This document shows, piece by piece, positions 18,489 through 38,494 of a stretch of DNA of 64,000 nucleotides. Under the pieces are notes generated by a model that saw only the letters and a program-made list of their open reading frames with translations, was not told where the DNA came from and searched no databases. The stretch lies in NCBI RefSeq assembly GCF_003018255.1, contig NZ_CP027440.1, one strand, 5' to 3'. The position numbers were made by a program, and so were the translations under genes. Numbering within the stretch: position 1 is the stretch's first letter; every line of letters starts with the position of its first letter. Source of the DNA: Escherichia coli (lineage in GTDB: Bacteria > Pseudomonadota > Gammaproteobacteria > Enterobacterales > Enterobacteriaceae).

Positions 18489-19779
18489 GGCGCACCTCCC
18501 GCAGCCGCCGCTGGCGGCACAGGCTAATAAGCTGCATCAGTTGCTGGATCTGAGCGTTGTTGTAGTCCGGCGACAGCAACAATTCGAGGGCGGGCATCGG
18601 CGTACTGGTGTCGCCATTCAGGGCCGCCAGCACCTGATAGCAGCGCTGTGCCGCCGGGTGGGGAAAATCGTGGCAAGGCGCGAGGGTGAAACCGGCCGGA
18701 GCGCTGTCGTCCGGCTGGATACAGGCGTCCAGTCCCCAGCAGGCACACAGCGACTGTGCCGTATGCACCAGCGGTGAGGGCTTTGGCTCATCGGGCGCGG
18801 CGGGTTCAGTCGGTGGCTCAGGCTCTGGTAGTGGTGCTTTTTCCACTTCCGGCGGTGGCGGCCAGAGGACCTTTTCGGCCGGAGGCCCCAGCAGCACCTG
18901 CCGCTTGCTCTGACCGTCAGTCAGTTCCGCCAGCAACGTATTCCAGCTCATGCCGCTGCGACAGCTCATCTCACCGAGCAGTTCGTCCTGCACCAGTTGC
19001 GGTACCACGGCTTCCGGCTCGCCGTTGAAGATGGCGAGGGCGGTGCTGAACAGGTCGGCAAATTCGGGCTGGCGTTCCAGCGGCATCAGCTTTACCCAGA
19101 CCTGTTCTGCTGCGCTGCGTAGTGACAGCAGGCGATCGATAACCTTGCGGGTAAGACCGCCATATAGCGCGTTTGGGATGCAGGGCAGCAGCCAGTCTAC
19201 GGTCTGTAGCATCCGGCTGATTTGCGACTGGCTGACGGGATAGCCGTCGCGGGTGAGTTGTTCCGCCAGCGCCAGCTGCGTCGGGCATTCAATGCCTGCC
19301 TCGAGGTAAAGATCGCGCAGGTGCAGGACCCCTTCCGCCCGTTCGATAAACATCAATCCGTTATGCAGGTCGCTTTCGGCCAGATGGCCGATCAGGCACT
19401 GGACTTCGCCTTGCTGCGGTGACAGCGTTTCCGGCCACGGTCTGAACGGCCAGCAGACGCGGTGGTAACGCTCATCCTGCGTCTCCTGCCACAGTTCATT
19501 GAGGATGGCGAGGCGCGTATTTCCGCCGCTGGCGAGCATATATTTTTCATCACCGGGGCGGCGGGTCAGTACCGGCGGGTTATCCAGCCCACGGGCAAGA
19601 ATTGACGCCTTCAGCACGTCATAGCCGGGGTTGCGGGTGACGCGGGGATTGAGGGAGAACGGCTGGATTTGCTCCAGGCTGACCTGGACCATTTCCTGTT
19701 CTCCGGTATTGCTGGCGCCGTGAAGCCAGCGGTTGAGCAGGTGTGAAGCGCACATAATCTTCCTCCGGCATTCAGACAT
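18472..19779 (-). CDS. ParB-family partition / nuclease-domain protein of ICE
   Basis: 435 aa; N-terminal ParB/Srx-like region; proline-rich linker. Confidence 0.55.
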   Translation of the reverse strand: MSECRRKIMCASHLLNRWLHGASNTGEQEMVQVSLEQIQPFSLNPRVTRNPGYDVLKASILARGLDNPPVLTRRPGDEKYMLASGGNTRLAILNELWQETQDERYHRVCWPFRPWPETLSPQQGEVQCLIGHLAESDLHNGLMFIERAEGVLHLRDLYLEAGIECPTQLALAEQLTRDGYPVSQSQISRMLQTVDWLLPCIPNALYGGLTRKVIDRLLSLRSAAEQVWVKLMPLERQPEFADLFSTALAIFNGEPEAVVPQLVQDELLGEMSCRSGMSWNTLLAELTDGQSKRQVLLGPPAEKVLWPPPPEVEKAPLPEPEPPTEPAAPDEPKPSPLVHTAQSLCACWGLDACIQPDDSAPAGFTLAPCHDFPHPAAQRCYQVLAALNGDTSTPMPALELLLSPDYNNAQIQQLMQLISLCRQRRLREVRHDTLS

Positions 19780-19972
19780 CGCGGGTAAGCCGGATGCGCT
19801 GGTGGATCCACGCGTCCACCTCGCTTTCCAGCCAGGCGACGTGGCGGCTATTGAGTCGAATGGACGGCGGAAACTGTTGCAGCTGGATTTGTCGATAAAT
19901 CCACGATTTACCGAAGCCGATTTTATCTTCCACCTGGCGTAAGCGTAAAAATCTGTCGCTATTCATAACCAT
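19772..19972 (-). CDS. alpA: AlpA-family transcriptional regulator / excisionase-like DNA-binding protein
   Basis: 66 aa; RLRQVEDKIGFGKSWIYRQI... helix-turn-helix typical of AlpA. Confidence 0.6.
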   Translation of the reverse strand: MVMNSDRFLRLRQVEDKIGFGKSWIYRQIQLQQFPPSIRLNSRHVAWLESEVDAWIHQRIRLTRDV

Positions 19973-20104
19973 TCCTCCTGTGTCCAGATTCGTTCACATC
20001 AGCACGATAGGCGTGGTTATCAAAGCAGCAGCGTCCCTGCCAGGCAGTAAAAATCCTTATCTGGGTTAGTGAGAGTTGTTAGTTGAAAGGGTTAGTTGAT
20101 CGCG

Positions 20105-20995
20105 TTACGGCGGTGCGCCGCGCTGGAGTGCGGTTTTCAACGTCTCGGGGCTCAGCGGCAGGTGCATACCTTCCTCACGCGCCCAGCATTCGAAAATATT
20201 CAGCAGTTTGTAGGGATGCTCCAGCATTTCATCGTCCAGTTGCGGGTTGTGCTTGCAGGCCAGCCACAGCAAACGCGAAAGCGCGGAGGTGATCCGCTCC
20301 TTTGATTCTGGCTGATGACGGGTCAGGAAGGCTTCGAGATGAGTGCGGCGGATGATGAACAGTGCGTCAGGAGGCAGCGTGTCCTGCAGGTAGCAGACGG
20401 ACAGACTGAGCCGGGATTTCAGGTCATTGTGGCCATTACCATATAGCTGGCCAATCAGCAGATGAAGCTCTTCCTGGAGGTTGTTTTGCGTGGCGAGCAG
20501 TTCCAGTAAAAGCTCCCGCAACGATTTGCGGCAACAGAGTTGGTAGTAGCTGTCGTTTTCATCGCAGACCACGATGCCAATCTGGTTGCAGCAATGGGTA
20601 TCATTGGGGCAAGGGCGATTCAACGTTTTCGCCAGTTGCTGGTGGAGCAGCAGGCGCTCAATGCCGATTAACGGCAAATTCCACAGATGGCTGGTGGTCA
20701 GTTGCAGAGTTGGGTCGCGTCTGCACGGCGGCGAGTTTGCCATCACTTTGCGGTTGCCGGGTTTGTTGCACTGCGAAGGTGGAAAAGGAGGCTTACTGAA
20801 TCGGCAGGCAAAGCGGCAAGGCGGATTGAGTGGTCTCAGCAGAACGGGCGAAGGGAAGTAGACCGAGAGCGACAGATCGCCGTGCAGGGCATGGCGGATC
20901 AGGTCGGCGGGCAGCAACGTGATGTTGTGCTGCCGGATGACTTCTGCAGCCTCATCCAGCGTCAGCCACTCTTGGCGAATTTTGTGTGGGGGCAT
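20105..20995 (-). CDS. ICE-associated hypothetical protein
   Basis: 296 aa ORF; last backbone-like gene before the AT-rich cargo; no Walker motif, so not ParA. Confidence 0.45.
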   Translation of the reverse strand: MPPHKIRQEWLTLDEAAEVIRQHNITLLPADLIRHALHGDLSLSVYFPSPVLLRPLNPPCRFACRFSKPPFPPSQCNKPGNRKVMANSPPCRRDPTLQLTTSHLWNLPLIGIERLLLHQQLAKTLNRPCPNDTHCCNQIGIVVCDENDSYYQLCCRKSLRELLLELLATQNNLQEELHLLIGQLYGNGHNDLKSRLSLSVCYLQDTLPPDALFIIRRTHLEAFLTRHQPESKERITSALSRLLWLACKHNPQLDDEMLEHPYKLLNIFECWAREEGMHLPLSPETLKTALQRGAPP

Positions 20996-21144
20996 GGGTA
21001 ACTCCTATTAGTTACATATGATGAGTACTATCTAAAAAAGCCAACTAAAGCGAGGTAAGGTGAGTTCTTTTAACTGGTTGTTTTGTATGTGATCTATTGG
21101 TGTTTTTTTTAGGTTTTTTACTGTTTTATTTAGGAAATCAATGA

Positions 21145-21172
21145 TTACGAATAGGCATAAATATGGTATGAT
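21145..21172 (+). promoter_or_regulatory. Candidate sigma70 promoter of the cargo operon: -35 TTACGA, 16-bp spacer, extended -10 TGgTATGAT
   Basis: Hexamers at 21145-21150 and 21167-21172 with TG at 21164-21165, about 40 bp upstream of the ATG at 21211. Confidence 0.35.
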
Positions 21173-21210
21173 ATCCATTAGTATAATATCAATGGATAAA
21201 GGCTTCTGTT

Positions 21211-23157
21211 ATGAATTTTGAAGAGCTTATAAATGATATTGAAAGACTCTTAATTGGTAAAGAGTTGCAGTCTATAAATCCTAACACCCCCCCATTATTC
21301 CTTTTAAAAATAGACAGGGATATTGGTAAATATTACGTGTCTGTTTCTTTAAATGCTAAGCCTACGGCAAGGTCAATTTCTGAATTTGAATATATATTTA
21401 ATGACTTACTGCGTAAAGGGTTTTGTAATGTAGATCAGTCATTATATGGTAGCTCTTCAAGCCGTAATCACCCGGAAACAATATTTGCAAACTTGCCTTA
21501 TATTCAATTCTTTAAGTTCAAGAAAAAGAAACATATATTATTACGTAATAAAAATGTACACGAAGCAGGTCAACTTTCTGAATTACAAGGGGCTGAGTCT
21601 CGTGCTATAAGGAAGCAAATAGAAAATTATTTATCTCTAAATTTAAGTGAAATTGCAGAGCAGCAGTTAAAATCGTTGGAAAAAATGTTCGATGCGTATG
21701 ATGCTATTTTAAAAAAATACCCAGGGGATATCCCTGTTATAATGGCTGAGCAAGGCTTGTTGGGATTAAAAAACATTAGCGAAGTACTGATTAATTCTTA
21801 TGTTTCCTTGGATTTTGACAGTAGTGGCGATAAAATAAATAAATTAAGTAAATTTAAACAGGTGGAGTTATTTAAAGAAGATTTATCTTTAGAGGATTTA
21901 ATTGAGTCCCCTGAGATAAGTGGAGTTGATTCAGGTGATAAGAATATTGAGGAACAATCGGAATCAGAATTAGCACCTGAGCAAAAACGTACGGGCATTG
22001 CAAAAATGCTTATGACTACACCAGTTTTAACACTAATTTTTGATCGTGTAAGATATGATGAAATTGAGTTACAACCTGACTTTCAGAGAAAAGACCGAAT
22101 TTGGCCTGACGACAAAAAGTCAAAACTTATTGAATCAATATTAATGAAGCTTCCATTACCGGGGTTTTACTTTGGTGAAAAGCCAAACGGTAACTGGGTA
22201 GTTATTGATGGCCTTCAAAGAACGACTACAATTTGTGATTATATGAGTGGTCATTTCTCATTGAAAGGGCTCTCTATTTTAGAGCACTTAAATGGAAAGA
22301 GTTTTAAAGATCTTACTCGAACCGAGCAACGAGACATTAGAGAGTATCAAATTACGGCTTACCAAATAGAACTAAATGATGATAGTTCTGAATTGGTTGT
22401 AGAACTATTCCATAGAATAAACACTTATGGTGTAAAGTTAAGTAGTCAAGAAATAAGATCTGCACTTAATAAAGGCAATAGCGTAACCTTTTTACGTTAT
22501 TTAGCTTCATTAGAAACGTTCAAAAAAGCGACGCAATTTAAAGTAAAGCCGGACAGGCAAAAAGATATGGAGCTCTGTTTGTCCGCTCTTGCTTTTATGG
22601 TACTTGGTTATAATAACTATGGCCAACATTCGTATGATCATTTTTTATGTAGTGCAATGCAGAAGCTAAATAATTATCCATTAAGCATCATTAATAAAGA
22701 AGAGATTGATGCTGGAACAGCTCTTATTTCTCCTTCAAGTGAAGTCTTTTTAACTTTATATTCAAAATATAATCAGGCTTTAATCTTAGCAAATGAAGTT
22801 TTTGGTGAAATAGCTTTTTCAAAAGATCCGGAAAATAAAAAATCACCTATTAATAAACAACTCTTTGAGTTAATTGTTACTGTTTTCTCTGTATTTGACT
22901 CACATCAAAAGGAGATGATGTTAGCTAATGGTGATAAATTTATTGATAGCTTATACTTGGCTATTGAGGAGAATAGTAGTCGATATGCTAAGTGGGAGTC
23001 TGATACATATGAAAAGGACGATAGAGGATTTAGAGACTCAATATCTACTTCGACAGGTAAAAGAATATCTGTTGTATATCGATTTGATGCTTTTTTAAAT
23101 ATCCTTGGAAAAAGCACAGGAATAACTATTGATAGTAAATTATTACAGGGGGAGTGA
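21211..23157 (+). CDS. DUF262 / ParB-like (GmrSD N-terminal-type) domain protein with unknown N- and C-terminal domains
   Basis: 648 aa; central region has LQPDFQRKDRIW and DGLQR (variant of the DGQQR motif); no recognisable DUF1524/His-Me nuclease motif; AT-rich. Confidence 0.7.
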   Translation: MNFEELINDIERLLIGKELQSINPNTPPLFLLKIDRDIGKYYVSVSLNAKPTARSISEFEYIFNDLLRKGFCNVDQSLYGSSSSRNHPETIFANLPYIQFFKFKKKKHILLRNKNVHEAGQLSELQGAESRAIRKQIENYLSLNLSEIAEQQLKSLEKMFDAYDAILKKYPGDIPVIMAEQGLLGLKNISEVLINSYVSLDFDSSGDKINKLSKFKQVELFKEDLSLEDLIESPEISGVDSGDKNIEEQSESELAPEQKRTGIAKMLMTTPVLTLIFDRVRYDEIELQPDFQRKDRIWPDDKKSKLIESILMKLPLPGFYFGEKPNGNWVVIDGLQRTTTICDYMSGHFSLKGLSILEHLNGKSFKDLTRTEQRDIREYQITAYQIELNDDSSELVVELFHRINTYGVKLSSQEIRSALNKGNSVTFLRYLASLETFKKATQFKVKPDRQKDMELCLSALAFMVLGYNNYGQHSYDHFLCSAMQKLNNYPLSIINKEEIDAGTALISPSSEVFLTLYSKYNQALILANEVFGEIAFSKDPENKKSPINKQLFELIVTVFSVFDSHQKEMMLANGDKFIDSLYLAIEENSSRYAKWESDTYEKDDRGFRDSISTSTGKRISVVYRFDAFLNILGKSTGITIDSKLLQGE

Positions 23158-24305
23158 TGAAAAAAATTACGTCTTTAACATTAAAAAATTTCAAAGCTTA
23201 TAAAGAACAGAGTTTTGATTTTAGTAATTTAACTGTATTTTGCGGTAATAATTCTGTTGGTAAAAGTACGGCTATTCAAGCTATCGGTATGTTTCTCCAA
23301 TCAGATATGAATGGTAACAGTAATCTAAAAATAAATGGCGATTTAGTTCATGTCGGAGACTTCGACGATATTCATAATTTCAGTATGCGTGAGGATGATG
23401 TTTTATATTTAAAATATACATTTGAAGACGATACGGCTTGCTGGGGATATGGTATAGAAGAAGGGGATGCTAGAGAAGAACTTTCTAGGAAAAATGAATT
23501 ACCTTTTATTGGGTGTGATAAACAATTAAGAACTATAACAAACTCACTTAAAGATAACTTTTCATTCCAATATTTGGAAGCGGAGAGATTTGGTCCAAGA
23601 GATAATATTCCATTATCACAGCACAATTATCATGAAGGTTGGCTTGGGAAAAATGGGGAACATACAATTGAAGTTCTTGAGAGTTTGGTCACAAGGAGGC
23701 GTTTAAATTTTTCTGCTCAAGAGGATCCTAGGAAACATGAAGGAATTATTAATAATAATGTTTTCAATCATATTGAAGCATGGATGTCTGAGATTTCACC
23801 AGGGCATCGTATCTCACCTAGAATTGAGGCTAGGGCGAATGTTGCATTTAATGTCATAATCCCTTCACCTGGACAATTAACGAAACCTATTAACATAGGA
23901 TTTGGATTTAGTTATGCTCTTAGTATTGTCACTGCTTTAATGCTGGCATCAAAAAATGAACTCGTTATTATTGAAAATCCTGAGGCTCATCTACATCCAA
24001 GAGGTCAAAGCTATTTAGGACGACTTATTGCTTTATCAGCAAAAGCAGGGATCCAGGTTATTATTGAGACTCATAGTGATCATCTTCTTAATGGCATAAG
24101 AGTAATTGCACGCACAGATCCAACTTTTGATGCTTCTCTTTTTACTCTTTACTATATTTCACGAGAAAATGATGAAACATCTGTCGCCAAAATAAAAATA
24201 AATAATGAAGGGAAACTTTCCGAATGGCCTAGAGGGTTCTTTGATCAACAATCACAGGATATGTATACGATAATGACAGGCTCTTTTGATCATCCCAATA
24301 TTTAA
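23157..24305 (+). CDS. ABC/SMC-like AAA ATPase (AAA_15/AAA_21-type with DUF3696-like C-terminal region)
   Basis: ORF track 23154 (GTG); ATG at 23157 overlaps upstream TGA (TGATG) with GGGGAG RBS. Walker A GNNSVGKST; ENPEAHLHP Walker B/D-loop signature; ETHSDH H-loop. Confidence 0.75.
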   Translation: MKKITSLTLKNFKAYKEQSFDFSNLTVFCGNNSVGKSTAIQAIGMFLQSDMNGNSNLKINGDLVHVGDFDDIHNFSMREDDVLYLKYTFEDDTACWGYGIEEGDAREELSRKNELPFIGCDKQLRTITNSLKDNFSFQYLEAERFGPRDNIPLSQHNYHEGWLGKNGEHTIEVLESLVTRRRLNFSAQEDPRKHEGIINNNVFNHIEAWMSEISPGHRISPRIEARANVAFNVIIPSPGQLTKPINIGFGFSYALSIVTALMLASKNELVIIENPEAHLHPRGQSYLGRLIALSAKAGIQVIIETHSDHLLNGIRVIARTDPTFDASLFTLYYISRENDETSVAKIKINNEGKLSEWPRGFFDQQSQDMYTIMTGSFDHPNI

Positions 24306-24324
24306 TATTGTAGGGACATATAAA

Positions 24325-25209
24325 ATGAAAGCTGGCGTGTTTCTTATTCCTGAATGTTTTGATTTCAATACGGATATTTTATCTTTAAGTTCGGACCTTG
24401 ATCTGGCTTCGAAACTCGTAGTAAATACCCGTTCAGAATTTATTCACTTTATGAAATCTAGGGAGTTTGACTCGAAGATTGCGGAGTTATTGTTTTCCAC
24501 ATCACCTGATTATGCTGGAATGATGTCAAGATTTTACGATCAGCATCTATCAAAAGTTATAAAAATGGATATTAATGACGATGATATTATTGATATTATA
24601 AATAGCGAAGAACCTAAGTATTCTAACCGTTTGTTATCAATTTTTAATACGGGAAAAAAAGATTTAAATATTAAATATGTTAATAGATTAATTGACTCAG
24701 AAATTAAGATGAATGATTATTGTACTGATATCTTATTGAATTACCCAAGAAATGACGAGCAATACTGTGAGGATATACAGCAGGTTTATAAAAATTTAAT
24801 TTTCCTAGATTATCCAGAGGCAAAAGAATTTAAGACATTTAATAGTCTCAAGAGAATGACCGGTGGTTATGATAATTTCTTGAAGGCTATAACCAATTTT
24901 TTAAGTTATATGAATAAATTCGAATTCAAAACGAAAGATATGATGGATACATTGAAAATGATGGAGAGTGATTTAGGATCTCCAGTAACTCCGGAAGGAG
25001 GGGGGAAGAAAAGCCGATCTTTGAAAAGAGATTTTTTAATTAATGGAAAGCTATATACAAATGTAAACTGCGAATTCCATTTGAAATTAGAAAATGTTGA
25101 TGATACTAAGGGAAACAGAAAACACCATAAGAATAGAATTTATTTTGGATTTATTATGATAAGTGATAAAAACAGAGTGGCAATAGCTCATATTGGGGAA
25201 CACATTTGA
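24325..25209 (+). CDS. Hypothetical protein, third gene of the DUF262-ATPase operon
   Basis: ORF track 24286..25209; ATG at 24325 with AGGGA RBS follows the ATPase stop by 20 nt; 294 aa, no recognisable motif. Confidence 0.5.
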   Translation: MKAGVFLIPECFDFNTDILSLSSDLDLASKLVVNTRSEFIHFMKSREFDSKIAELLFSTSPDYAGMMSRFYDQHLSKVIKMDINDDDIIDIINSEEPKYSNRLLSIFNTGKKDLNIKYVNRLIDSEIKMNDYCTDILLNYPRNDEQYCEDIQQVYKNLIFLDYPEAKEFKTFNSLKRMTGGYDNFLKAITNFLSYMNKFEFKTKDMMDTLKMMESDLGSPVTPEGGGKKSRSLKRDFLINGKLYTNVNCEFHLKLENVDDTKGNRKHHKNRIYFGFIMISDKNRVAIAHIGEHI

Positions 25210-25219
25210 AATCATTTTA

Positions 25220-25248
25220 AACCTACTGATAGTATATATCAGTAGGTT
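25220..25248. terminator. Perfect palindromic hairpin between convergent operons (likely bidirectional terminator)
   Basis: AACCTACTGATAGTATATATCAGTAGGTT between stop of the plus-strand operon (25209) and stop of the minus-strand restriction gene (25271). Confidence 0.5.
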
Positions 25249-25270
25249 CATGTTAATTTGATGTTCTTAG

Positions 25271-26344
25271 CTATATAACACAATCTTCCATAAAAGAATC
25301 TAGAAATAAATCATTTATTCCTTTAGGTTTTCTTCGGTCGCATAGAGAGTATAATTCTTCAACTGAAGAGTAAGGGAAGAATTTAGCTTTTAATTCAATG
25401 AATTGGGGCATGTTTGCAAATTCTATCACCTTTGCTCGATATTCATCAGGAGCAACGATAGTCCAACGGATATCTTGTAATCTCGGTGCATGATCATAGA
25501 ATTGTTTCATGCGAGTCAGACCACTTTTTATACCAGTACTGTGTTCAATCTCCATTACTGCTGGCATCATGCGGCCTTCCCTAAACCAAATGCAGTCTAT
25601 AAGACGAGCATCTTTAATCGCATCATTATACGATTGGAGTACTTGCTCATCAGATAATGAACTTATTACACCGTCCATTTGCGCTATAGCTTTACCATTA
25701 TATTGTAAGCTACGATCATTGGCTGCTACCCAAGTATCTAAACCTAAACAATAACCTATTTTTACTAAGGCAATTTGTATCTGAGCATGACGTCTTTTTT
25801 CTTCAATAGTCATGCCTTTAGTCGGTTTAATTGTCTCAATATCAACGCTTTGGTGAACAACATCGAAGCTCATTTCAGAGACAACAATATTAGTCTGGTG
25901 CTCAATTAACAAACCATTAGTATGTGGCATATCTGGCAGAAAAATCAGATGCTTATGTCCTGGTTTTATAGACTTTTGTGCATTCATGATTTCCAGTCTG
26001 GCTGGCCTACACCAATAGAACTCTGGAGTATGTGCGAGCAAGCTCTCCAATACCGAGCGGGTGTTGTAACTGGCACCGAAAACCCTTTCAACGTTGACAG
26101 GTCTGTTTTCTTCGAGTGCATTTGCAAGTCGCCAAAGCATTTGAGTCGAAATACTCTCTGTTTTAGCTGTTGCTTGAGTTTGACCTTTCTTAGGATCAAA
26201 TCTCTTTATTTCGATAGGACCTTCGGGATGTTGGATACGTACAATCTCAATCTTCCCGCTATTCCTATCGTTTATATAGTTAAACAGCGTATTTTTGGGT
26301 AAGCTCGAAATCGCCTGAACCAGATTCGATGCTGTTATCCTCAT
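25271..26344 (-). CDS. Putative Type II restriction endonuclease partnered with the adjacent C5-methyltransferase
   Basis: 357 aa ORF directly downstream of and overlapping the MTase 3' end (about 65 nt, ATG at 26344 with AGGA RBS); no family motif recognised; call is from gene context. Confidence 0.5.
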   Translation of the reverse strand: MRITASNLVQAISSLPKNTLFNYINDRNSGKIEIVRIQHPEGPIEIKRFDPKKGQTQATAKTESISTQMLWRLANALEENRPVNVERVFGASYNTRSVLESLLAHTPEFYWCRPARLEIMNAQKSIKPGHKHLIFLPDMPHTNGLLIEHQTNIVVSEMSFDVVHQSVDIETIKPTKGMTIEEKRRHAQIQIALVKIGYCLGLDTWVAANDRSLQYNGKAIAQMDGVISSLSDEQVLQSYNDAIKDARLIDCIWFREGRMMPAVMEIEHSTGIKSGLTRMKQFYDHAPRLQDIRWTIVAPDEYRAKVIEFANMPQFIELKAKFFPYSSVEELYSLCDRRKPKGINDLFLDSFMEDCVI

Positions 26345-27419
26345 TACTGTATCCTAAATGTTGCAAAATTGATTGGGCAATACCGAGCGCGGCGATATAG
26401 GGAACTCCGTTTCCGACTGTTTTAAACATATTCGACAAAGTCATATCCCCTGGTAGCTCAAAATTTTTTGGCAAAGACTGGATTGCCAATGCTTCAGCGA
26501 CCGTAATACGACGAGGTTTGTATGGGTGAAGGTGAACTTCATTATTACCATATGCTGCTGTTGGAGAGTATCTCCAGCGATGAAGCCTTTTATATGATTT
26601 TTTACTATCGTCGCCTTCTTCTACTGACTGGAATCTTGCTAAACCGGCTCGGGCCGTAAATACATGTTTAGCGTTTGGATGATTGGTAACATCGTTTTTC
26701 TCGAACCAGTATTCTATAGTAAGTTCTTCTGGAATACCTTGCGGGCATTCCATACTTGAGTCTTCTTCGTATGTGTTTGTTGTTGGCCAAGGGAACTGGA
26801 AAGCTTCCTTATTGGGGTATATTTGGCCACTCCATTCGAAGTTTTTGGCTAAAGACTTATCAAGAAAACCAACTAAAATAATCCTTTCTCGATCTTGAGG
26901 CGCACCGTATTCAATTGAATTAATCAATCTTTCATGCAGGATATATCCTACTGAAGCTAGTTCATTCTTAATTTGTTCGAAAAATTCTCTATGTTTAAGA
27001 GTCCGGTATAAGCCTTTAACGTTTTCAAAAAGGAAGAAATCAGGCATCATTTCAATTATCAGGTCAATGTAACTTTGTGATAATTTGCCATTTTCACCAT
27101 CTTTGCCTTTGTTTTTGCCAGCAACAGAAAAGTCAGGGCATGGTGGTCCGCCAATGAAGCCCACTAGGCGGTTTTCACCTTTCAGTGTTTTCATGCTATG
27201 CTTAATCACTGAATGCTCAATAGTTTCAATGCTTTCTTGGGCATACCCAAAGCGTGGCGGCTGTTTGCCAAGTTTTTTTCTTGAGTGTTTATACGCGTCC
27301 ATGAAGGGAGGATGGAATTCATTGACGAAAACCACCTCATACCCGGCATTTTCGAAGCCTAGGTCAAGAAAACCTGATCCTGAAAAGAATGAAAATATAG
27401 CGGGTTTCATTGTGGACAT
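26280..27419 (-). CDS. DNA cytosine-5 methyltransferase (Dcm-like)
   Basis: 379 aa; motif I FSGSGF, PC motif GGPPCPDFSVAGK, ENV motif ENVKGL. Confidence 0.85.
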   Translation of the reverse strand: MSTMKPAIFSFFSGSGFLDLGFENAGYEVVFVNEFHPPFMDAYKHSRKKLGKQPPRFGYAQESIETIEHSVIKHSMKTLKGENRLVGFIGGPPCPDFSVAGKNKGKDGENGKLSQSYIDLIIEMMPDFFLFENVKGLYRTLKHREFFEQIKNELASVGYILHERLINSIEYGAPQDRERIILVGFLDKSLAKNFEWSGQIYPNKEAFQFPWPTTNTYEEDSSMECPQGIPEELTIEYWFEKNDVTNHPNAKHVFTARAGLARFQSVEEGDDSKKSYKRLHRWRYSPTAAYGNNEVHLHPYKPRRITVAEALAIQSLPKNFELPGDMTLSNMFKTVGNGVPYIAALGIAQSILQHLGYSNEDNSIESGSGDFELTQKYAV

Positions 27420-27644
27420 TTTATACCTATCAAGTTAGCTTAAATTTTTACTAAATATCTCGCTGTACGATCCTACTATTTTACATGATAACTTGTTAAT
27501 TATCAATTTACTTTTTAATATATTAGCAAATAAGACCTGGCACTACTTCAGATTAGATAGTATTCATTGCTATAAAGTTAGGTGTTAATATATTGATTAA
27601 TAGTATAAGCTGCTATTATAGATTTAGAAACCGAAGGAACTTAT

Positions 27645-28100
27645 ATGCCTGATATGAGGTTATTTAAATCAAAAAACACCAAACTTGAGTTAAGAATCAG
27701 GAAGCCGTTGTTTGCCAGAGGATTTCGTTATCGATTGCATAATAGTGGTTTGCCTGGTAGACCAGATATGTATTTCCCTAAATACAATGCAGTCATTTTT
27801 ATCCATGGCTGTTTTTGGCATGGGCATGATAACGGCTGCCCTATATCTCACACTCCTAAAAATAATGAATCGTACTGGCAAAATAAAATCAATAAAAATC
27901 AAGAAAGAGATGTCAAAAATCAATATGTTCTTGCATCTAAAAACATCCGCGTTCTGATTATATGGGAGTGTGCAATAAAACTTAAAAGTATTGATTTTGT
28001 CGATTTTATTGATTACATCGATGAATGGCTTAGAGGTGGGGCAAATTCAACACAGATGAGCGCAAAGGAACCAATGCCGACTTTTGAGTTTCCGAAATGA
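27645..28100 (+). CDS. vsr: Very short patch repair endonuclease (Vsr)
   Basis: 151 aa; Vsr-like sequence incl. FIHGCFWHGH; divergent from the C5-MTase as is typical. Confidence 0.85.
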   Translation: MPDMRLFKSKNTKLELRIRKPLFARGFRYRLHNSGLPGRPDMYFPKYNAVIFIHGCFWHGHDNGCPISHTPKNNESYWQNKINKNQERDVKNQYVLASKNIRVLIIWECAIKLKSIDFVDFIDYIDEWLRGGANSTQMSAKEPMPTFEFPK

Positions 28101-28282
28101 ATTATTATGACAAGTTCCCTTGAGTGGTAATATCTAACATCGTTATTTGCTAATATATATATGAAATAAAGTAATTGCCAAGAAATTTATTACAAAACAA
28201 GACCCGCAAAAAATCTCTTTCCATGTGGGGTTTTATTAGCTATTAGTGTTTGGTTAAATTATTAACCATCAATAGGCATCCT

Positions 28283-28423: not shown

Positions 28424-28555
28424 ATGCGTTTCGGACCTGGAAAATAATTACGCAACTTTGTGATCTTCCACCCAGTATTCAATTTTATGTCCCATTTTGG
28501 GGGCAAATCCTCAAAATAAAATCTCACAAACCATTATTTTTCAACGAATTAAACG

Positions 28556-28588
28556 CAAAGGCGAGTCCGGCCTTCGACCTTCGCACCA
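28556..28588. repeat. Degenerate copy of the 3' end of tRNA-Leu (leuX): candidate distal att repeat (attR) of the genomic island
   Basis: GCGAGTCCGGCCTTCGACCTTCGCACCA resembles the leuX 3' end GGTTCGAGTCCGGCCTTCGGCACCA (from memory); no full tRNA present. Confidence 0.45.
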
Positions 28589-29353
28589 TCGGAACATCAA
28601 TAGACGTCAACGGACGTTTTTTTATGACTGAAATCCGCGCCACACAAGGCTTTTCGCTATTTTTCGCTCAACCTAAGTCAACCTACATCAACTTACTGAT
28701 GTGGATACAGCTACAGCTGCGGCTATATCCCGATTCGATAATGTTTGTACCCACACAAAACCCTTGAAAGGCTACAAGGCTGAAATTGTCTAAACCATAG
28801 AGATGATTTTTATGATCCAGTCTTTCTCTTGTTGAGATAGTTCCAGTTTGCTCACTCGTGTTAAGAAGGTATTGATCACCTGAACATCCGAATTGGTGAG
28901 CCTATTTAATAGAGCGGGTGGTATACCTTTACTAACAATCGCTTTGCGGTGACTTTCGTAGTTTTTATTACTCATTGTTGATCCTCAAAAATCATTGTAT
29001 GGCGGCATTGATCGTTTCCAGCAACCTTTACTTACTCACTTCGAACTGCATCCTCGTAGACTGTTCCACTACAATAATCGAAAAGGCGCGGATGTCCATT
29101 CAGGTATCCCGCTAATACGTATAGCAATAACAATGGCTTATGCGGCGCGCGCTGTTCACCCTTGTGCCAGATTTTTATATTGGCAATTGCCTGCTGTAGC
29201 GATTTACTGGAAGCCATTGATATCCCTGGCAGTGAAATAATTGCGATCATGCTCGCAAATTTTCTGCTGTTCAAGCCTGCAAGTGAAGATATATTACCTT
29301 GATCTCATTTGTTTTTTTGCTGCCTGTTCTGAGAACGTATAAGGACATTCTCC

Positions 29354-30004
29354 ATGAATAAACTCCCTGATCATCTTCCGCGGCGGTATATCATCGAAGC
29401 TATCCATTTATGGGATGCGGGAGAAACTCATCAGTTCCAGCCTGCGCGGTTGTATGAGATTGAATATCATGGCCGACGTTACCCCTCGAAGGCGATTGCT
29501 GGCATCGCAGCGACATTGATGACGGGGACGCAATTTACCCCTGCGGATTTCACCGGCGGAATAAAATCTAAATGCGTCAAACTACTCATAGAGCAGGGAT
29601 TTCATATTCATCAGGATAAAGCCGCTGCGGCTCCCATAGCCGACGTTCTGTTCCCGGATGAGTTGCCGTCGCAGGAGACATACCTTGAAGGTGCGGCGAT
29701 AAAGGTGACAGTAAACCGCTATGAACGCGATAAAAAGGCCCGAGATAAAGCGGTCGAACATCATGGATGCCAGTGCAACGTATGCGGCGTTGATCTGGTG
29801 AAGATCTATGGTGATATCGCTGAAGGCTTTATCCATATGCATCACCTGGTGCCGCTTTCAGCCATTAAAGAGGATTACCAGCTGGATCCAGTTAATGATT
29901 TGCTGCCTGTGTGCCCTAATTGCCATGCGATGCTGCACCGACGCAAACCACCGTTTTCACCGGAGGAGTTAAAAGCGTTGATGGATGCAAATAAATCAAA
30001 TTAA
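29354..30004 (+). CDS. HNH endonuclease with uncharacterised N-terminal domain
   Basis: 216 aa; C-terminal HNH motif CQCNVCG...HMHHLVPLS...N...CPNCH. Confidence 0.7.
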   Translation: MNKLPDHLPRRYIIEAIHLWDAGETHQFQPARLYEIEYHGRRYPSKAIAGIAATLMTGTQFTPADFTGGIKSKCVKLLIEQGFHIHQDKAAAAPIADVLFPDELPSQETYLEGAAIKVTVNRYERDKKARDKAVEHHGCQCNVCGVDLVKIYGDIAEGFIHMHHLVPLSAIKEDYQLDPVNDLLPVCPNCHAMLHRRKPPFSPEELKALMDANKSN

Positions 30005-30011
30005 TGAACGC

Positions 30012-30992
30012 TCACCTTTCGCGCCAAAACCGCAAAATTGCTTCTACAAACCTGTCAGAAATAATCCCCCGACGGGCTGCCGCGCTGAAATGACTGCTTC
30101 GCAGTGCCGTCGTCCAGTTCTCCGGTGACCGGTACGCTGAACCGTAATATCCCGTGCTTAAATCGTCCGGATCTTCATCAGGCGCGTTCGTCAGTCCTCT
30201 TTCACCTTGTTGCTGGAAGTCGACGAAAATAATATTGGCTAAAACATTATTTTGATAATTGCCATAAATCGCTTCATACGCATGAGGGAAATTTTCTTTC
30301 CAGTACCAGGTGGTATCGCCGCAAAACCACGGTGCGTCAGTAATATTATTAAGCTGAGAATGGTATTGTTTTAGATCCCTACGAAAGGCTTCAACCATAT
30401 GATTAAAGTGTTGAGGGTGTGACGAGTAGTCACAGGTCATTAAGTCAAATTCGCCTTGCATCCAGCATACGCCGAGGAATTTGTTCTGCGGATTTTTTGC
30501 CAGTGCGGCTCGCGTTCTGCTGACTAAATCCTGGTACAGCGGAGTATCCGTTCCCCAACGACAAGCATCATGGCTGGCTCCGTGCCGTTCTGAATATGTC
30601 CCTTCGCTGCCCGCGGTAAAAGCCGATCCGCCACGGCAACACGGAACGATGAGAACCCCTGCGTTATCAGGAATAAAGGGCAGTAATTTCCGTGCAATAT
30701 GCAGTGCCTGGCCAACGGTGCCGTACTGTGTTTGATGATTTGTTGCCAGAGGATGGTGATAACCCTGCATATCCTGAACATCGTGTGGGCAGTGAGTCAG
30801 TGGAATAATGTCGTTAAAGTGACATGACGGGCCTCCGGGATGCGTATGCGCAAATCTCGCTAATTGTTTAATTCTGGGATGAGGCGCATCTTCCCTGTCC
30901 GGTAATGGCAGTCCTTCGCCATACGCCATGGCATTAGACTGACCAGCAACGGTAAGAACATAGTAATAATCGGGCGATATTATTGCGTTCAT
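30012..30992 (-). CDS. nanS: N-acetyl-9-O-acetylneuraminate esterase NanS
   Basis: ORF 30012..31019 trimmed to ATG at 30992 (MNAIISPDYYYVLTVAGQSNAMAYG...), 326 aa; nanS-nanM-nanC context. Confidence 0.85.
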   Translation of the reverse strand: MNAIISPDYYYVLTVAGQSNAMAYGEGLPLPDREDAPHPRIKQLARFAHTHPGGPSCHFNDIIPLTHCPHDVQDMQGYHHPLATNHQTQYGTVGQALHIARKLLPFIPDNAGVLIVPCCRGGSAFTAGSEGTYSERHGASHDACRWGTDTPLYQDLVSRTRAALAKNPQNKFLGVCWMQGEFDLMTCDYSSHPQHFNHMVEAFRRDLKQYHSQLNNITDAPWFCGDTTWYWKENFPHAYEAIYGNYQNNVLANIIFVDFQQQGERGLTNAPDEDPDDLSTGYYGSAYRSPENWTTALRSSHFSAAARRGIISDRFVEAILRFWRER

Positions 30993-31056
30993 ATAATTTT
31001 CGCGTAATACAAATGACAAATTGATAGCAGGGCCCCTTTACCGAGGCCCTGAAGCG

Positions 31057-33339: not shown

Positions 33340-34350
33340 ATCAAAAATCACGCAATCCATACAACAAAACGAGATTTGCAATTCGTGTCACAAAATATGT
33401 CGATCTTTTTCTAAGAGGCAGATGCCATGTGAAGCCAGACGAACACTTGCGGTGGTCTTCAAAAATTAAAGATTTTATTTTAACTGTCTGTTTTATAAAA
33501 AATTTATTTAGAATCTAAACAAAGAAAGCTTTGCAAGCTAACTCAGTGAGCTTGGTGAAAATAAGTGTTTACCCGCCATCAGGCTGAGCATAATTCTCAT
33601 CATGAAATATGTTTCTTGGTTTGTGGCTTGTAACTGGTCACTCCTGATGTCGATCTGGAGAGGCTTGTTGATGTTGGTGTTTTCAGGATGATGTTTCACT
33701 TAGTTTGTTTGCCGTATCGCCCGGCGAATAGCTGTGATTGAGGAAGGTTTAAGTCGTAGTGACCAAAGCCATAGTTACCAACGGATGTAGATGAAAAAGC
33801 GTCGCCTGCGTTCCCCCATATCTCCAGGATAAAAGGGAATGTAACAATCTCATGGCCTAAGCTGACGAACCAGGCAGGAATAATCGCTAGGGATCTAAGA
33901 ATTAGCATGATAATAGCCACTAAGAAATTACTGCGTTCCATGAAATAGCCATTTTGTGGCAAATGCAGTTGACTAATAATGTCATATGTGAGACGGCTAG
34001 TTGAACGAATATTAAATTTTGCTGAATTTTTTATGTTGATTTTACTTGTTACAGAACATATCACATGATATATAGATAAGATTAGTTGCATTAATGATGA
34101 GGGTTATTATTCGATTCGTATCAGATTGATAAATATATAAAGGTACATAGCATGCAAGAGCATGGCGTTTGTATGGCAAAGTTATTATAAGTAACTATCG
34201 CTACTCCATTTAAGTTCGCTCAGAAGAACTGGTCCACTTACGTTAGTTATTAAGCAAACGTTCGCTTTTATAAACATAATCAGGATAAAAATGTTGGATT
34301 ATTGCTAACCCAGCACAGCTAGTGCGCGTCTGTAATTATAAGGGAAAACG

Positions 34351-34953
34351 ATGAAGAATAAGGCTGATAACAAAAAAAGGAACTTCCTGACCCATAGTGA
34401 AATCGAATCACTCCTTAAAGCAGCAAATACCGGGCCTCATGCAGCACGTAATTATTGTCTGACTTTGCTTTGTTTTATTCATGGTTTCCGGGCGAGTGAA
34501 ATTTGCCGATTGAGGATTTCGGATATTGATCTTAAGGCAAAGTGTATATATATCCATCGATTAAAAAAAGGCTTTTCAACAACGCACCCGCTATTGAACA
34601 AAGAAATTCAGGCTTTAAAAAACTGGTTGAGTATCCGTACTTCTTATCCGCATGCTGAGAGCGAGTGGGTATTCTTATCACGTAAGGGGAATCCACTTTC
34701 TCGGCAACAGTTTTACCATATTATCTCGACTTCCGGTGGTAATGCCGGGTTGTCACTGGAGATTCATCCGCACATGTTACGCCATTCGTGTGGTTTTGCT
34801 TTGGCGAATATGGGAATAGATACGCGACTTATCCAGGATTATCTTGGGCATCGCAATATTCGTCATACTGTCTGGTATACCGCCAGCAATGCAGGGCGTT
34901 TTTACGGCATCTGGGATAGAGCCAGAGGGAGACAGCGTCACGCTGTTTTATAG
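34351..34953 (+). CDS. fimB: Type 1 fimbriae regulatory recombinase FimB
   Basis: 200 aa, tyrosine recombinase motifs (HxxR...Y); matches FimB. Confidence 0.95.
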   Translation: MKNKADNKKRNFLTHSEIESLLKAANTGPHAARNYCLTLLCFIHGFRASEICRLRISDIDLKAKCIYIHRLKKGFSTTHPLLNKEIQALKNWLSIRTSYPHAESEWVFLSRKGNPLSRQQFYHIISTSGGNAGLSLEIHPHMLRHSCGFALANMGIDTRLIQDYLGHRNIRHTVWYTASNAGRFYGIWDRARGRQRHAVL

Positions 34954-35430
34954 AGATAGTTGAGATACCAGGGATGGTGTTAAAAACTACATTATTCTTA
35001 CGATATATCAAAAATGATTAACCATTTATTAATTGATGTTATTGTAAGTGTGATTCTTAATTATCATAATAAACATTAAGTTAACCATATCCATACAAAA
35101 TACAATGGCTTATGTTCTTCAAAATAAATAAACAAAATCATTCATAAATTTACACATCACTTAAATTCTCCTGTTTCCACACTTTTTTCTTTATTTTTTA
35201 AGCAACTGGAAGTTAATCTTCTGCAATCTATTGTTATATTGAATCAAATCAATGAAAATAGATGTTGTCACATCAGTGATATTTTATTTTTGTATGATAT
35301 TTAATGTAATTGACTGATAGCCACATCACTTCGTGTGTGGTTATCTTTTTATCTATTGGGCTAATTTTGACCGATTGAGGTTTCCTATAGGTATTCATTC
35401 AAATATATCTCAGTTAGGAGTACTACTATT

Positions 35431-36027
35431 GTGAGTAAACGTCGTTATCTTACCGGTAAAGAAGTTCAGGCCATGATGCAGGCGGTTTGTTACGGGGCAA
35501 CGGGAGCCAGAGATTATTGTCTTATTCTGTTGGCATATCGGCATGGGATGCGTATTAGTGAACTGCTTGATCTGCATTATCAGGATCTTGACCTTAATGA
35601 AGGTCGAATAAATATTCGCCGACTGAAGAACGGATTTTCTACCGTTCACCCGTTACGTTTTGATGAGCGTGAAGCCGTGGAACGCTGGACCCAGGAACGT
35701 GCTAACTGGAAAGGCGCTGACCGGACCGACGCTATATTTATTTCTCGCCGCGGGAGTCGGCTTTCTCGCCAGCAGGCCTATCGCATTATTCGCGATGCAG
35801 GTATTGAAGCTGGAACCGTAACGCAGACTCATCCTCATATGTTAAGGCATGCTTGCGGTTATGAACTGGCGGAGCGTGGTGCCGATACCCGTTTAATTCA
35901 GGATTATCTCGGGCATCGAAATATTCGCCATACTGTACGTTATACCGCCAGTAATGCTGCTCGTTTTGCCGGATTATGGGAAAGAAATAATCTCATAAAC
36001 GAAAAATTAAAAAGAGAAGAGGTTTGA
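35431..36027 (+). CDS. fimE: Type 1 fimbriae regulatory recombinase FimE
   Basis: 198 aa starting at GTG (MSKRRYLTGKEVQAMMQAVCYG...); matches FimE. Confidence 0.95.
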   Translation: MSKRRYLTGKEVQAMMQAVCYGATGARDYCLILLAYRHGMRISELLDLHYQDLDLNEGRINIRRLKNGFSTVHPLRFDEREAVERWTQERANWKGADRTDAIFISRRGSRLSRQQAYRIIRDAGIEAGTVTQTHPHMLRHACGYELAERGADTRLIQDYLGHRNIRHTVRYTASNAARFAGLWERNNLINEKLKREEV

Positions 36028-36074
36028 TTTAACTCATTGATAATAAAGTTAAAAAACAAATAAATACAAGACAA

Positions 36075-36388
36075 TTGGGGCCAAACTGTCCATATCATAA
36101 ATAAGTTACGTATTTTTTCTCAAGCATAAAAATATTAAAAAACGATAAAAAGCATCTAACTGTTTGATATGTAAATTATTTCTCTTGTAAATTAATTTCA
36201 CATCACCTCCGCCAAATGTAAAGCTAACGTTTCTGTGGCTCGACGCATCTTCCTCATTCTTCTCTACAAAAACCACCTCATGCAATATAAAAATCTATAA
36301 ATAAAGATAACAATAGAATATTAAGCCAACAAATAAACTGAAAAAGTTTGTGCGCGATGCTTTCCTCTATGAGTCAAAATGGCCCCAA
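36075..36388 (-). promoter_or_regulatory. fimS: fimS invertible switch, apparently in phase-OFF orientation
   Basis: 9-bp inverted repeats TTGGGGCCA (36075-36083) and TGGCCCCAA (36380-36388). The fimA promoter (-35 TTGAGA at 36118-36123, 18-bp spacer, -10 TATGAT at 36094-36099) is on the minus strand next to the fimE-proximal repeat, pointing toward fimE. Confidence 0.7.
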
Positions 36389-36507
36389 ATGTTTCATCTT
36401 TTGGGGGAAAACTGTGCAGTGTTGGCAGTCAAACTCGTTGACAAAACAAAGTGTACAGAACGACTGCCCATGTCGATTTAGAAATAGTTTTTTGAAAGGA
36501 AAGCAGT

Positions 36508-37062
36508 ATGAAAATTAAAACTCTGGCAATTGTTGTTCTGTCGGCTCTGTCCCTGAGTTCTACAGCGGCTCTGGCTGAAACTACACCCACGACGGTAAAT
36601 GGTGGGACCGTTCACTTTAAAGGGGAGGTTGTTAACGCCGCTTGCGCAGTTGATGCAGGCTCTGTTGATCAAACTGTTCAGTTAGGGCAGGTTCGTACAG
36701 CATCGCTGGCACAAGAAGGAGCAACCAGTTCTGCTGTCGGTTTTAACATTCAACTGAACGATTGTGACACTACTGTTGCAGACAAAGCTGCTATTGCCTT
36801 CCTTGGTACCGCAATTGATGGAACTCATCCTAACGTATTAGCTTTGCAGAGTTCAGCTGCGGGTAGCGCAACAAAAGTTGGTGTGCAGATCCTGGACAGA
36901 ACGGGTGCTGCGCTGGCGCTGGACGGTGCGACATTTAGTGCACAAACAACCTTGAATAACGGTACCAACACCATTCCGTTCCAGGCGCGTTATTATGCAA
37001 TCGGCGAGGCAACCCCGGGTGCTGCTAATGCGGATGCGACCTTCAAGGTTCAGTATCAATAA
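36508..37062 (+). CDS. fimA: Type 1 fimbrial major subunit FimA (allelic variant)
   Basis: 184 aa, signal peptide, pilin fold ending FKVQYQ; N-terminal mature region differs from the K-12 allele as I recall it. Confidence 0.95.
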
Positions 37063-37126
37063 CCTACCCAGGTTCAGGGACGTCATTACGGGCAGGGATG
37101 CCCACCCTTGTGCGATAAAAATAACG

Positions 37127-37666
37127 ATGAAAAGGAAGAGATTATTTCTATTAGCGTCGTTGCTGCCAATGTTTGCTCTGGCCGGAAATAAATGGAATAC
37201 CACGCTGCCCGGCGGAAATATGCAATTTCAGGGCGTCATTATTGCGGAAACTTGCCGAGTTGAAGCTGGTGATAAACAAATGACGGTCAATATGGGGAAA
37301 ATCAGCAGTAACCGGTTTCATGCGGTAGGGGAAGATAGCGCACCGGTGCCTTTTGTTATTCATTTACGGGAATGTAGCACGGTGGTGAGTGAACGTGTGG
37401 GTGTGGCGTTTCACGGTGTCGCGGATGGTAAAAATCCGGATGTGCTTTCCGTGGGAGAGGGGCCAGGGATAGCCACCAATATTGGCGTAGCGTTATTTGA
37501 TGATGAAGGAAACCTCGTACCGATTAATCGTCCTCCAGCAAACTGGAAACGGCTTTACTCAGGCTCTACTTCGCTACATTTCATCGCCAAATATCGTGCT
37601 ACCGGGCGTCGGGTTACTGGCGGCATCGCCAATGCCCAGGCCTGGTTCTCTTTAACCTATCAGTAA
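37127..37666 (+). CDS. fimI: Fimbrial protein FimI
   Basis: ORF 36995..37666 trimmed to ATG at 37127 ([19 protein letters not shown]), 179 aa. Confidence 0.9.
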
Positions 37667-37702
37667 TTGTTCAGCAGATAATGTGATAACAGGAACAGGA
37701 CA

Positions 37703-38428
37703 GTGAGTAATAAAAACGTCAATGTAAGGAAATCGCAGGAAATAACATTCTGCTTGCTGGCAGGTATCCTGATGTTCATGGCAATGATGGTTGCCGGACG
37801 CGCTGAAGCGGGAGTGGCCTTAGGTGCGACCCGCGTAATTTATCCGGCAGGGCAAAAACAAGTGCAACTTGCCGTGACAAATAATGATGAAAATAGCACC
37901 TATTTAATTCAATCATGGGTGGAAAATGCCGATGGTGTAAAGGATGGTCGTTTTATCGTGACGCCACCTCTGTTTGCGATGAAGGGAAAAAGAGAGAATA
38001 CCTTACGTATTCTTGATGCAACAAATAACCAATTGCCACAGGATCGGGAAAGTTTATTCTGGATGAACGTTAAAGCGATTCCGTCAATGGATAAATCAAA
38101 ATTGACTGAGAATACGCTACAGCTCGCAATTATCAGCCGCATTAAGCTGTACTATCGCCCGGCTAAATTAGCGTTGCCACCCGATCAGGCCGCAGAAAAA
38201 TTAAGATTTCGTCGTAGCGCGAATTCTCTGACGCTGATTAACCCGACACCCTATTACCTGACGGTAACAGAGTTGAATGCCGGAACCCGGGTTCTTGAAA
38301 ATGCATTGGTGCCTCCAATGGGCGAAAGCACGGTTAAATTGCCTTCTGATGCAGGAAGCAATATTACTTACCGAACAATAAATGATTATGGCGCACTTAC
38401 CCCCAAAATGACGGGCGTAATGGAATAA
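37703..38428 (+). CDS. fimC: Periplasmic fimbrial chaperone FimC
   Basis: 241 aa, PapD-like chaperone. Confidence 0.95.
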   Translation: MSNKNVNVRKSQEITFCLLAGILMFMAMMVAGRAEAGVALGATRVIYPAGQKQVQLAVTNNDENSTYLIQSWVENADGVKDGRFIVTPPLFAMKGKRENTLRILDATNNQLPQDRESLFWMNVKAIPSMDKSKLTENTLQLAIISRIKLYYRPAKLALPPDQAAEKLRFRRSANSLTLINPTPYYLTVTELNAGTRVLENALVPPMGESTVKLPSDAGSNITYRTINDYGALTPKMTGVME

Positions 38429-38494
38429 CGCAGGGGGAATTTTTCGCCTGAATAAAAAGAATTGACTGCCGGGTGATTTTAAACCGGAGGAATA

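Follow-up and report, generated by a model that had tools for sequence, protein, structure and literature searches.

Several described systems come close to the locus that we analysed in Escherichia coli, a 28-base motif in a stretch of 64,000 nucleotides of contig NZ_CP027440.1. This whole stretch is called the window, and coordinates refer to it unless stated otherwise. The satellite phage P4 has its target gene leuX, a 20-nt core region and an integrase of 58% identity in common with the element found here. Moreover, the attachment site of both is heterobivalent, with GGGGGC arm repeats to the left and right and a further one in inverted orientation at the start of int: In P4, GGGGGC accompanies the annotated attP core GAGTCCGGCCTTCGGCACCA at -75/-63 as well as +134/+146, and the repeat that overlaps the int start, at +175, is inverted. 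The two elements also differ: (i) here we find a conjugative ICE of ~60 kb, whereas P4 is a satellite of 11.6 kb; (ii) the left arm has one clear site (-64) where P4 has two (-75/-63); and (iii) the integrase ORF carries a C-terminal extension of ~150 aa.

In a more general form, the regeneration of a tRNA gene with displacement of a fragment, as well as tandem arrays of such elements, has been described in the work on Islander and TIGER (PMC4383910, PMC7192596). As in those islands, a full tDNA and a 3' fragment in the same orientation enclose an integrase, the array results from successive integrations, and the fragment has a small deletion 3 bp upstream of the discriminator. There is no difference in kind, except that the older member of the array is devoid of an integrase. 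Due to this loss, an automated resolver would not call the older island separately. PAI II536 of uropathogenic E. coli 536, with which we compare our locus by description, is likewise a leuX-associated island with a P4-like integrase. Its excision leaves an incomplete leuX that is restored upon reintegration (PMC3202238), and this excision damage fits the damaged distal repeat seen here. PAI II536, however, is a virulence island that is mobilised by a helper plasmid, whereas the element studied here is an ICE of the PFGI-1 class. With ICEEc2 and the pKLC102-PAGI-2, SPI-7 and PFGI-1 ICEs it shares, as annotated, the TIGR037xx proteins, MobH, TraD, PilL2, STY4528/STY4534, ParB and topB. E. coli members of the PFGI-1/pKLC102/SPI-7 family have been described at pheV/pheU (PMC13127887); in contrast to these, the element here occupies leuX and has a P4-type integrase. 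Finally, the cryptic element KpLE2/PR-Y of K-12 lies in the same leuX-nanS hotspot, with a decayed P4-like integrase (intB) directly after leuX. K-12, however, shares the sequence of the window only from 29074, and it has no displaced leuX fragment with the 11-mer TCCGGCCTTCG between leuX and fimE.

Our analysis suggests that the motif is very probably the core of a composite att junction in a tandem array of leuX islands, at which the attR of the ICE meets an older P4-type island. The features of the window on which this view is based are as follows:

1-20998, minus strand: right part of the backbone of a PFGI-1-class ICE, with conjugative ATPase, TraD, PilL2, topB pseudogene, ParB and a 296-aa terminal gene
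20999-28271, no strand assigned: AT-rich variable defence cargo, 7.3 kb, 34.5% GC, with DUF262/DUF3696, a putative R-M system and vsr
28283 to ~28447, plus strand: fosA7.5 remnant that has lost 257 bp internally, last gene of the cargo directly ahead of the arm
28473-28560, plus strand: conserved right-end (P-type) arm of the ICE, ~90 bp, with the P4-type arm site TTTTGGGGGCAAAT
28561-28588, plus strand: displaced leuX 3'-end fragment and probable attR junction core, shares a 15-mer and CACCA with leuX
28589-28775, plus strand: leuX-proximal (attL-type) arm of an older P4-family island, 187 bp, 78-80% identity to the arms of 2015C-3107 and W60
29068-29217, minus strand: N-terminal fragment of a phosphorothioate-dependent restriction endonuclease that is full length in A34 and SCU-113

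The leuX copy and the element upstream of it

The motif reads GCGAGTCCGGCCTTCGACCTTCGCACCA and repeats the final ~20 nt of leuX, which ends with GGTTCGAGTCCGGCCTTCGGCACCA. The two have an exact 15-mer, CGAGTCCGGCCTTCG (28562-28576), and the terminal CACCA (28584-28588) in common. The degeneracy of the motif is made up of two parts, the deletion of a single G from the CGGC of leuX and one extra slipped 7-nt unit, ACCTTCG, at 28577-28583 (alignment A1). Even if two mismatches are allowed, the 15-mer occurs only once in the window, at a tolerance for which shuffled sequences give an expectation of 0.09 matches, and in the 110 kb that extend from leuX to the end of the window the motif is its sole copy besides leuX itself. 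ARAGORN detected no tRNA gene anywhere in the window, Rfam gave no tRNA match at the motif even at E<=10 and just chance hits at the level of snoRNAs, and the sequence upstream of the motif is unrelated to leuX, with neither a cloverleaf nor a tRNA body (alignment A1).

The short span of the match (just ~20 nt) and the silence of both ARAGORN and Rfam at the motif might speak for a chance resemblance to a tRNA end or for a decayed tRNA pseudogene. However, an exact 15-mer plus CACCA is set against the low expectation from the shuffled sequences, the junction is kept in register in many genomes, and the missing upstream tRNA body means that the motif is not the relic of a whole tRNA. The comparative data rule out both possibilities, the probability of which is practically nil. 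Thus, the original prediction of a leuX 3'-end copy that has no full tRNA nearby and is located between the AT-rich cargo and nanS was correct in these points.

The leuX gene with which the motif is compared here comes from E. coli JNE23-011 (NZ_AP045067.1), to which the window is essentially identical and which served as the record for the DNA upstream of it. The two are near-identical but distinct assemblies: They differ by an indel of 1 bp to the left of ~21,200 and by one or more substitutions, including that at 41120. In the JNE23-011 record, ARAGORN identifies an intact leuX (tRNA-Leu, anticodon CAA) at 424010-424094, outside the window. The distance from leuX to the motif is 59,886 bp; leuX is upstream and both are on the plus strand, i. 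e. in direct orientation. The second copy that the original prediction had called for at the other end of the island is therefore leuX itself, 59.9 kb upstream. As is typical of displaced fragments, a 3' fragment is found downstream of and in the same orientation as a full-length tRNA gene on the same replicon, at a distance between 2 and 200 kb, and a tyrosine integrase is encoded within the interval beside the regenerated tRNA gene.

The integrase ORF begins 222 bp after leuX and is open for 558 aa (18897-20573 of locus L002, outside the window), even though RefSeq calls the gene a C-terminally incomplete pseudogene. The identity of 58% to P4 Int covers residues 1-408, including the HGFR and VRAAY catalytic motif; the alignment continues through the region of the catalytic tyrosine and is followed by the unrelated extension of ~150 aa. 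Together, the integrase-side arm and int recur with 94% identity in Citrobacter sp. NCU1. Past the integrase, the gene order comprises AbiE, the MobH relaxase and conjugation and maintenance genes of the PFGI-1/SPI-7/ICEclc type. The presence of the genes of this ICE family between the att sites was established by the RefSeq (PGAP) names only, among them the ICE proteins TIGR03745-03759, PFL_4669/4703, PilL2 (PFGI-1 class), MobH, TraD and STY4528/STY4534. Within the window, the ICE backbone has 58% GC and ends at ~20998, beyond which about 21 other ICE-bearing E. coli genomes no longer show homology. The DNA topoisomerase III gene topB of the ICE (13885-15690) has an annotated internal stop, which suggests that the ICE is decaying. 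The ICE also carries a chaperone-usher fimbrial operon with a tyrosine DNA invertase (33443-40202 of locus L002, outside the window); the fim switch of the chromosome lies a few tens of kb away.

The arm in front of the leuX copy

Left of the motif, the AT-rich cargo is followed by the fosA7.5 remnant and the arm of ~90 bp, so that the cargo is not in direct contact with the motif. The arm contains the P4-type site TTTTGGGGGCAAAT with GGGGGC at 28499-28504, 64 bp before the core. On the leuX side of the ICE, GGGGGC is found at +191/+203 and in inverted orientation at +234, at the int ATG. The core is thus accompanied by arm repeats at P4-like distances, as in the heterobivalent att sites of the P4 family. 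The right-end arm is rare: It is present in just 73 of 5426 complete E. coli genomes, and these are either ICE-bearing strains, in which it lies behind variable defence cargo, or fosA7.5-bearing strains. In the ICE strains, 7.5-15 kb separate the backbone end from the arm on its right, and this space holds one of three sets of cargo: (i) a DUF262/DUF3696 pair with a putative type II R-M system (dcm and the adjacent ORF) and vsr in the window, the DUF262/DUF3696 and R-M set being found in the O152:H23 strain as well, (ii) an Ssp-like phosphorothioation system in SCU-113, A34 and Ec-U9-1, and (iii) a dcm/ATPase/DEAD-helicase/vsr set in PEC395. The terminus of all three variants is one and the same arm, in which GGGGGC precedes the core by 64 bp; then comes CGAGTCCGGCCTTCG-CACCA. 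In SCU-113 and PEC395, the core is free of the additional 7-nt unit of the window. This cargo slot is a hotspot for the exchange of defence genes inside the ICE.

The distribution of the arm, the terminus common to the three cargo variants and the P4-like layout argue that the motif is an end of the ICE, i. e. its presumed distal repeat or attR. The offset of the arm is identical in SCU-113, PEC395, the O152:H23 strain, the fosA7.5 strains and Atlantibacter. Furthermore, the occupant of the interval differs between related genomes, and the breakpoints coincide with the fragment: a P4-like satellite, a CbtA/YeeU island, the ICE variants and fosA7.5 remnants all border on this one core. The assignment as an island attR in the original prediction is therefore supported, with a direct leuX copy, the integrase and the ICE in between, and the conserved right end of the ICE family as the left flank. 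The ICE-bearing relatives correspond to just three variants, so that the independent observations are few.

The motif and its left arm could instead have come from a separate, older fosA7.5 island, with the attR of the ICE itself deleted and the present adjacency accidental. Homology with ICE-less fosA7.5 strains begins at 28272, upstream of the arm, and in one of these strains, 2013C-4974, IS elements and genes other than those of the ICE are found left of fosA7.5. Moreover, about 56 genomes have fosA7.5, the arm and the motif without the ICE, and the segment could accordingly belong to another element with a similar arm. However, ICE variants that lack fosA7.5 (the SCU-113 and PEC395 types) keep both arm and core at an unchanged offset, the GGGGGC site of the arm matches the sites beside the ICE's own integrase, and there is no further leuX repeat between leuX and the motif. 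In particular the retention of the arm in two ICE variants without fosA7.5 weakens the idea of a separate island, and we regard it as unlikely. We thus prefer to view the arm as the right end of the ICE.

When remnants of the ICE were sought in an ICE-less fosA7.5 strain, only the segment from fosA7.5 to the arm was in common; the upstream leuX relic of this strain is followed by an arm of the K-12 type rather than the ICE type. In Atlantibacter subterranea, unrelated flanks enclose the arm, the core and a fosA7.5 3' end of 52 codons (92% amino acid identity). The arm and the core travel between genera. A rearranged form of the junction was observed in the O152:H23 strain Res13-Lact-ER01-35 (14560-17265 of locus L008), which has the ICE, the cargo and the fosA7.5 remnant in common with the window. 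There, the core is cut after GGCGAGTCCGGC; past the cut, a 2.6-kb AbiE cassette is followed by a second arm and a single-G core, which precede an arm of the K-12 type and an integrase remnant.

The sequence to the right of the leuX copy

The original prediction had placed the boundary between ICE cargo and core genome at the motif. If this were correct, the sequence to the right should be conserved chromosome, and at first glance it may look so: Some 1200 E. coli genomes have it in common, and it is followed within 1.5 kb by nanS-nanM-nanC-fim. In contrast, the comparison with other strains reveals island DNA. In 2015C-3107, the stretch between the end of an intact leuX and the ATG of an integrase aligns with the region 28562-28775 at 78-80% identity (E about 1e-50). 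The match is just as good for the arm that precedes a decayed integrase in W60, a strain that has a P4-like satellite on the left. The 187 bp immediately to the right of the motif thus correspond to integrase-upstream arms that elsewhere follow an intact leuX. They have arm-type sites of their own, TGTGGATA (28700), TGCGGCTA (28718) and the inverted TACCCACA (28748), in the arrangement that is found in 2015C-3107 as well, and they include a terminator-like hairpin with a T-run. The homology ends just before the expected integrase ATG, which indicates that the integrase of the older island was deleted.

K-12 is devoid of 28589-29073. The sequence that it shares with the window starts at ~29074, within the endonuclease fragment, and continues with nanS from ~30009. 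At the same position, less decayed strains carry an integrase remnant, BrxR, Wadjet, a PDDEXK nuclease and the full-length restriction endonuclease, and in the O26 strain RM10386 a CbtA/YeeU-type island abuts the same core. The sequence distal to the motif is thus not native in island-free relatives; it consists of the leuX-proximal arm of an older island and other island debris. The homology to integrase-upstream arms and the absence of 28589-29073 from K-12 refute the assumption that the motif joins an island to conserved chromosome, and the remaining probability of such a boundary is very small indeed. The site is a junction inside a tandem array of islands.

Some further observations concern this flank. 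The ~290 bp at 28776-29067 are common to O26 and fosA7.5 strains and absent from K-12 and A34. The HNH endonuclease gene to the right of the old arm (29354-30004) has a paralogue inside the ICE (24586-25239 of locus L002), with 73% nucleotide identity over 289 bp. The nanS frame (30012-31019) is open for 335 aa and the whole gene region is 97.7% identical to K-12; the RefSeq annotation of nanS is a partial pseudogene only (30426-30992).

The missing G, the slipped repeat and the history of the junction

In alignment A1, the three intact leuX genes and the attP of P4 read TCGGCACCA, and all six displaced copies read TC-GCACCA. The second part of the degeneracy varies between strains: At junctions with an arm of the TCGGAAC type, the number of CACC(T/A)TCG units (7-8 nt) is one in W60, two in the window as well as in the fosA7.5 strain, and three in O26. 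Such variation resembles replication slippage in a repeat that was created by the junction of core and arm.

The single-G form is widespread. In species-representative genomes across the Enterobacterales it was found at 113 places, 107 of which are relics without a tRNA body; some of the relics are longer and stem from integrases that cross over elsewhere in the tRNA. Four single-G matches had been considered as full-length leuX. By inspection and ARAGORN, three of them are such longer relics with 45-60 nt of leuX, and Pantoea eucrina has the sole full-length tRNA-like gene with the deletion among the four. A scan of viral contigs that took both forms gave the same picture: The copies linked to a tRNA body and an integrase all have GG, and among the copies linked to a P4 arm 31 have a single G and 2 have GG. 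A looser scan, in which the matches listed were mostly unrelated tRNAs and which was used only after filtering for P4-type arms, brought at least one more copy, in which 3 nt are deleted at this position. In six prophage contigs, GG is present at the leuX end and the single G at the far end, 10.5-12.5 kb apart. Finally, prophages with 97-100% protein identity to P4 carry the single G, preceded by an arm that does not differ from the one in free P4; the deposited attP of free P4 reads GG. In searches with the attP region of P4, the sole matches were three P4 records, all from one source of 1987, and free P4-like plasmids were not among them. The junction of the W60 satellite gave no match in the phage collection.

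Damage of displaced fragments by the loss of this G is already known, as stated in the passage of the Islander paper that cites Williams 2003. The regularity is therefore not new, and our counts document how regular it is: The functional GG form invariably accompanies the integrase-side arm, and the deletion is present in nearly all distal copies. It is tempting to speculate that the loss of the base is a regular property of the P4 family at leuX that is selected or mechanistically produced rather than a result of random decay, and that loss of the island would cripple leuX; we offer this as a tentative and rather doubtful idea. It is faced with a puzzle since the relics before the arms of older islands have the single G as well, though they were presumably once functional. 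None of the simple crossover models fits all junctions. A crossover left of the G is in agreement with the GG of the P4 attP and with the damage upon excision of PAI II536, but not with the single-G relics before older arms. If the crossover lay right of the G and attP had a single G, all genomic junctions would be accounted for, yet such an attP is at odds with the one deposited for P4. A heteroduplex model for the single G is speculative.

The sequence identity of the motif to leuX, its orientation, the integrase, the layout of the arm sites, the association of the arm with the ICE and the homology of the right flank are directly supported, and from these we infer the order of events. An older P4-type island would already have been present at leuX before the ICE arrived. 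The attP of the PFGI-1-class ICE, with its P4-family tyrosine integrase, would then have recombined with leuX at its 3' end. The regenerated leuX and the integrase would be the result at the left end (attL), which lies outside the window, and at the right end (attR) the other arm of the ICE would have been fused to the displaced leuX 3' copy, i. e. the motif. Since the older island already occupied leuX, the displaced copy would be followed by the leuX-proximal arm of this island rather than by core genome. Later deletions may have removed the older integrase, most genes of the older island and a part of fosA7.5. Judging from the sequence, the present attR is probably poorly functional or non-functional and this copy of the ICE poorly mobile or immobile, as the core has the single G and the extra 7-nt slip and topB is a pseudogene; with a 1-nt deletion and a 7-nt insertion in the core, recombination may even be impossible at present.

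As a displaced tRNA fragment, the motif is a textbook case of an ordinary and well-known signature, and the importance of our findings is limited largely to annotation: Exact ends can now be given for a leuX-integrated ICE of ~60 kb, the leuX-nanS interval of this strain is recognized as a tandem array of at least two elements, and the motif no longer counts as a border of the core genome. If the regular loss of the G has the meaning considered above, the 3' end of leuX would be held hostage and the island stabilised, as when PAI II536 excises. What seems modestly new is the location of fosA7.5. This fosfomycin-resistance gene has been reported as chromosomal, between IS3/ISL3 and HNH-nanS-nanM-nanC, with no att site mentioned (PMC9431306). 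According to the comparison of sequences presented here, it appears to sit at the terminus of a leuX-targeting mobile element with a P4-type integrase. The presence of fosA7.5 beside a leuX-targeting arm, in another genus as well, would provide a concrete route for its spread.
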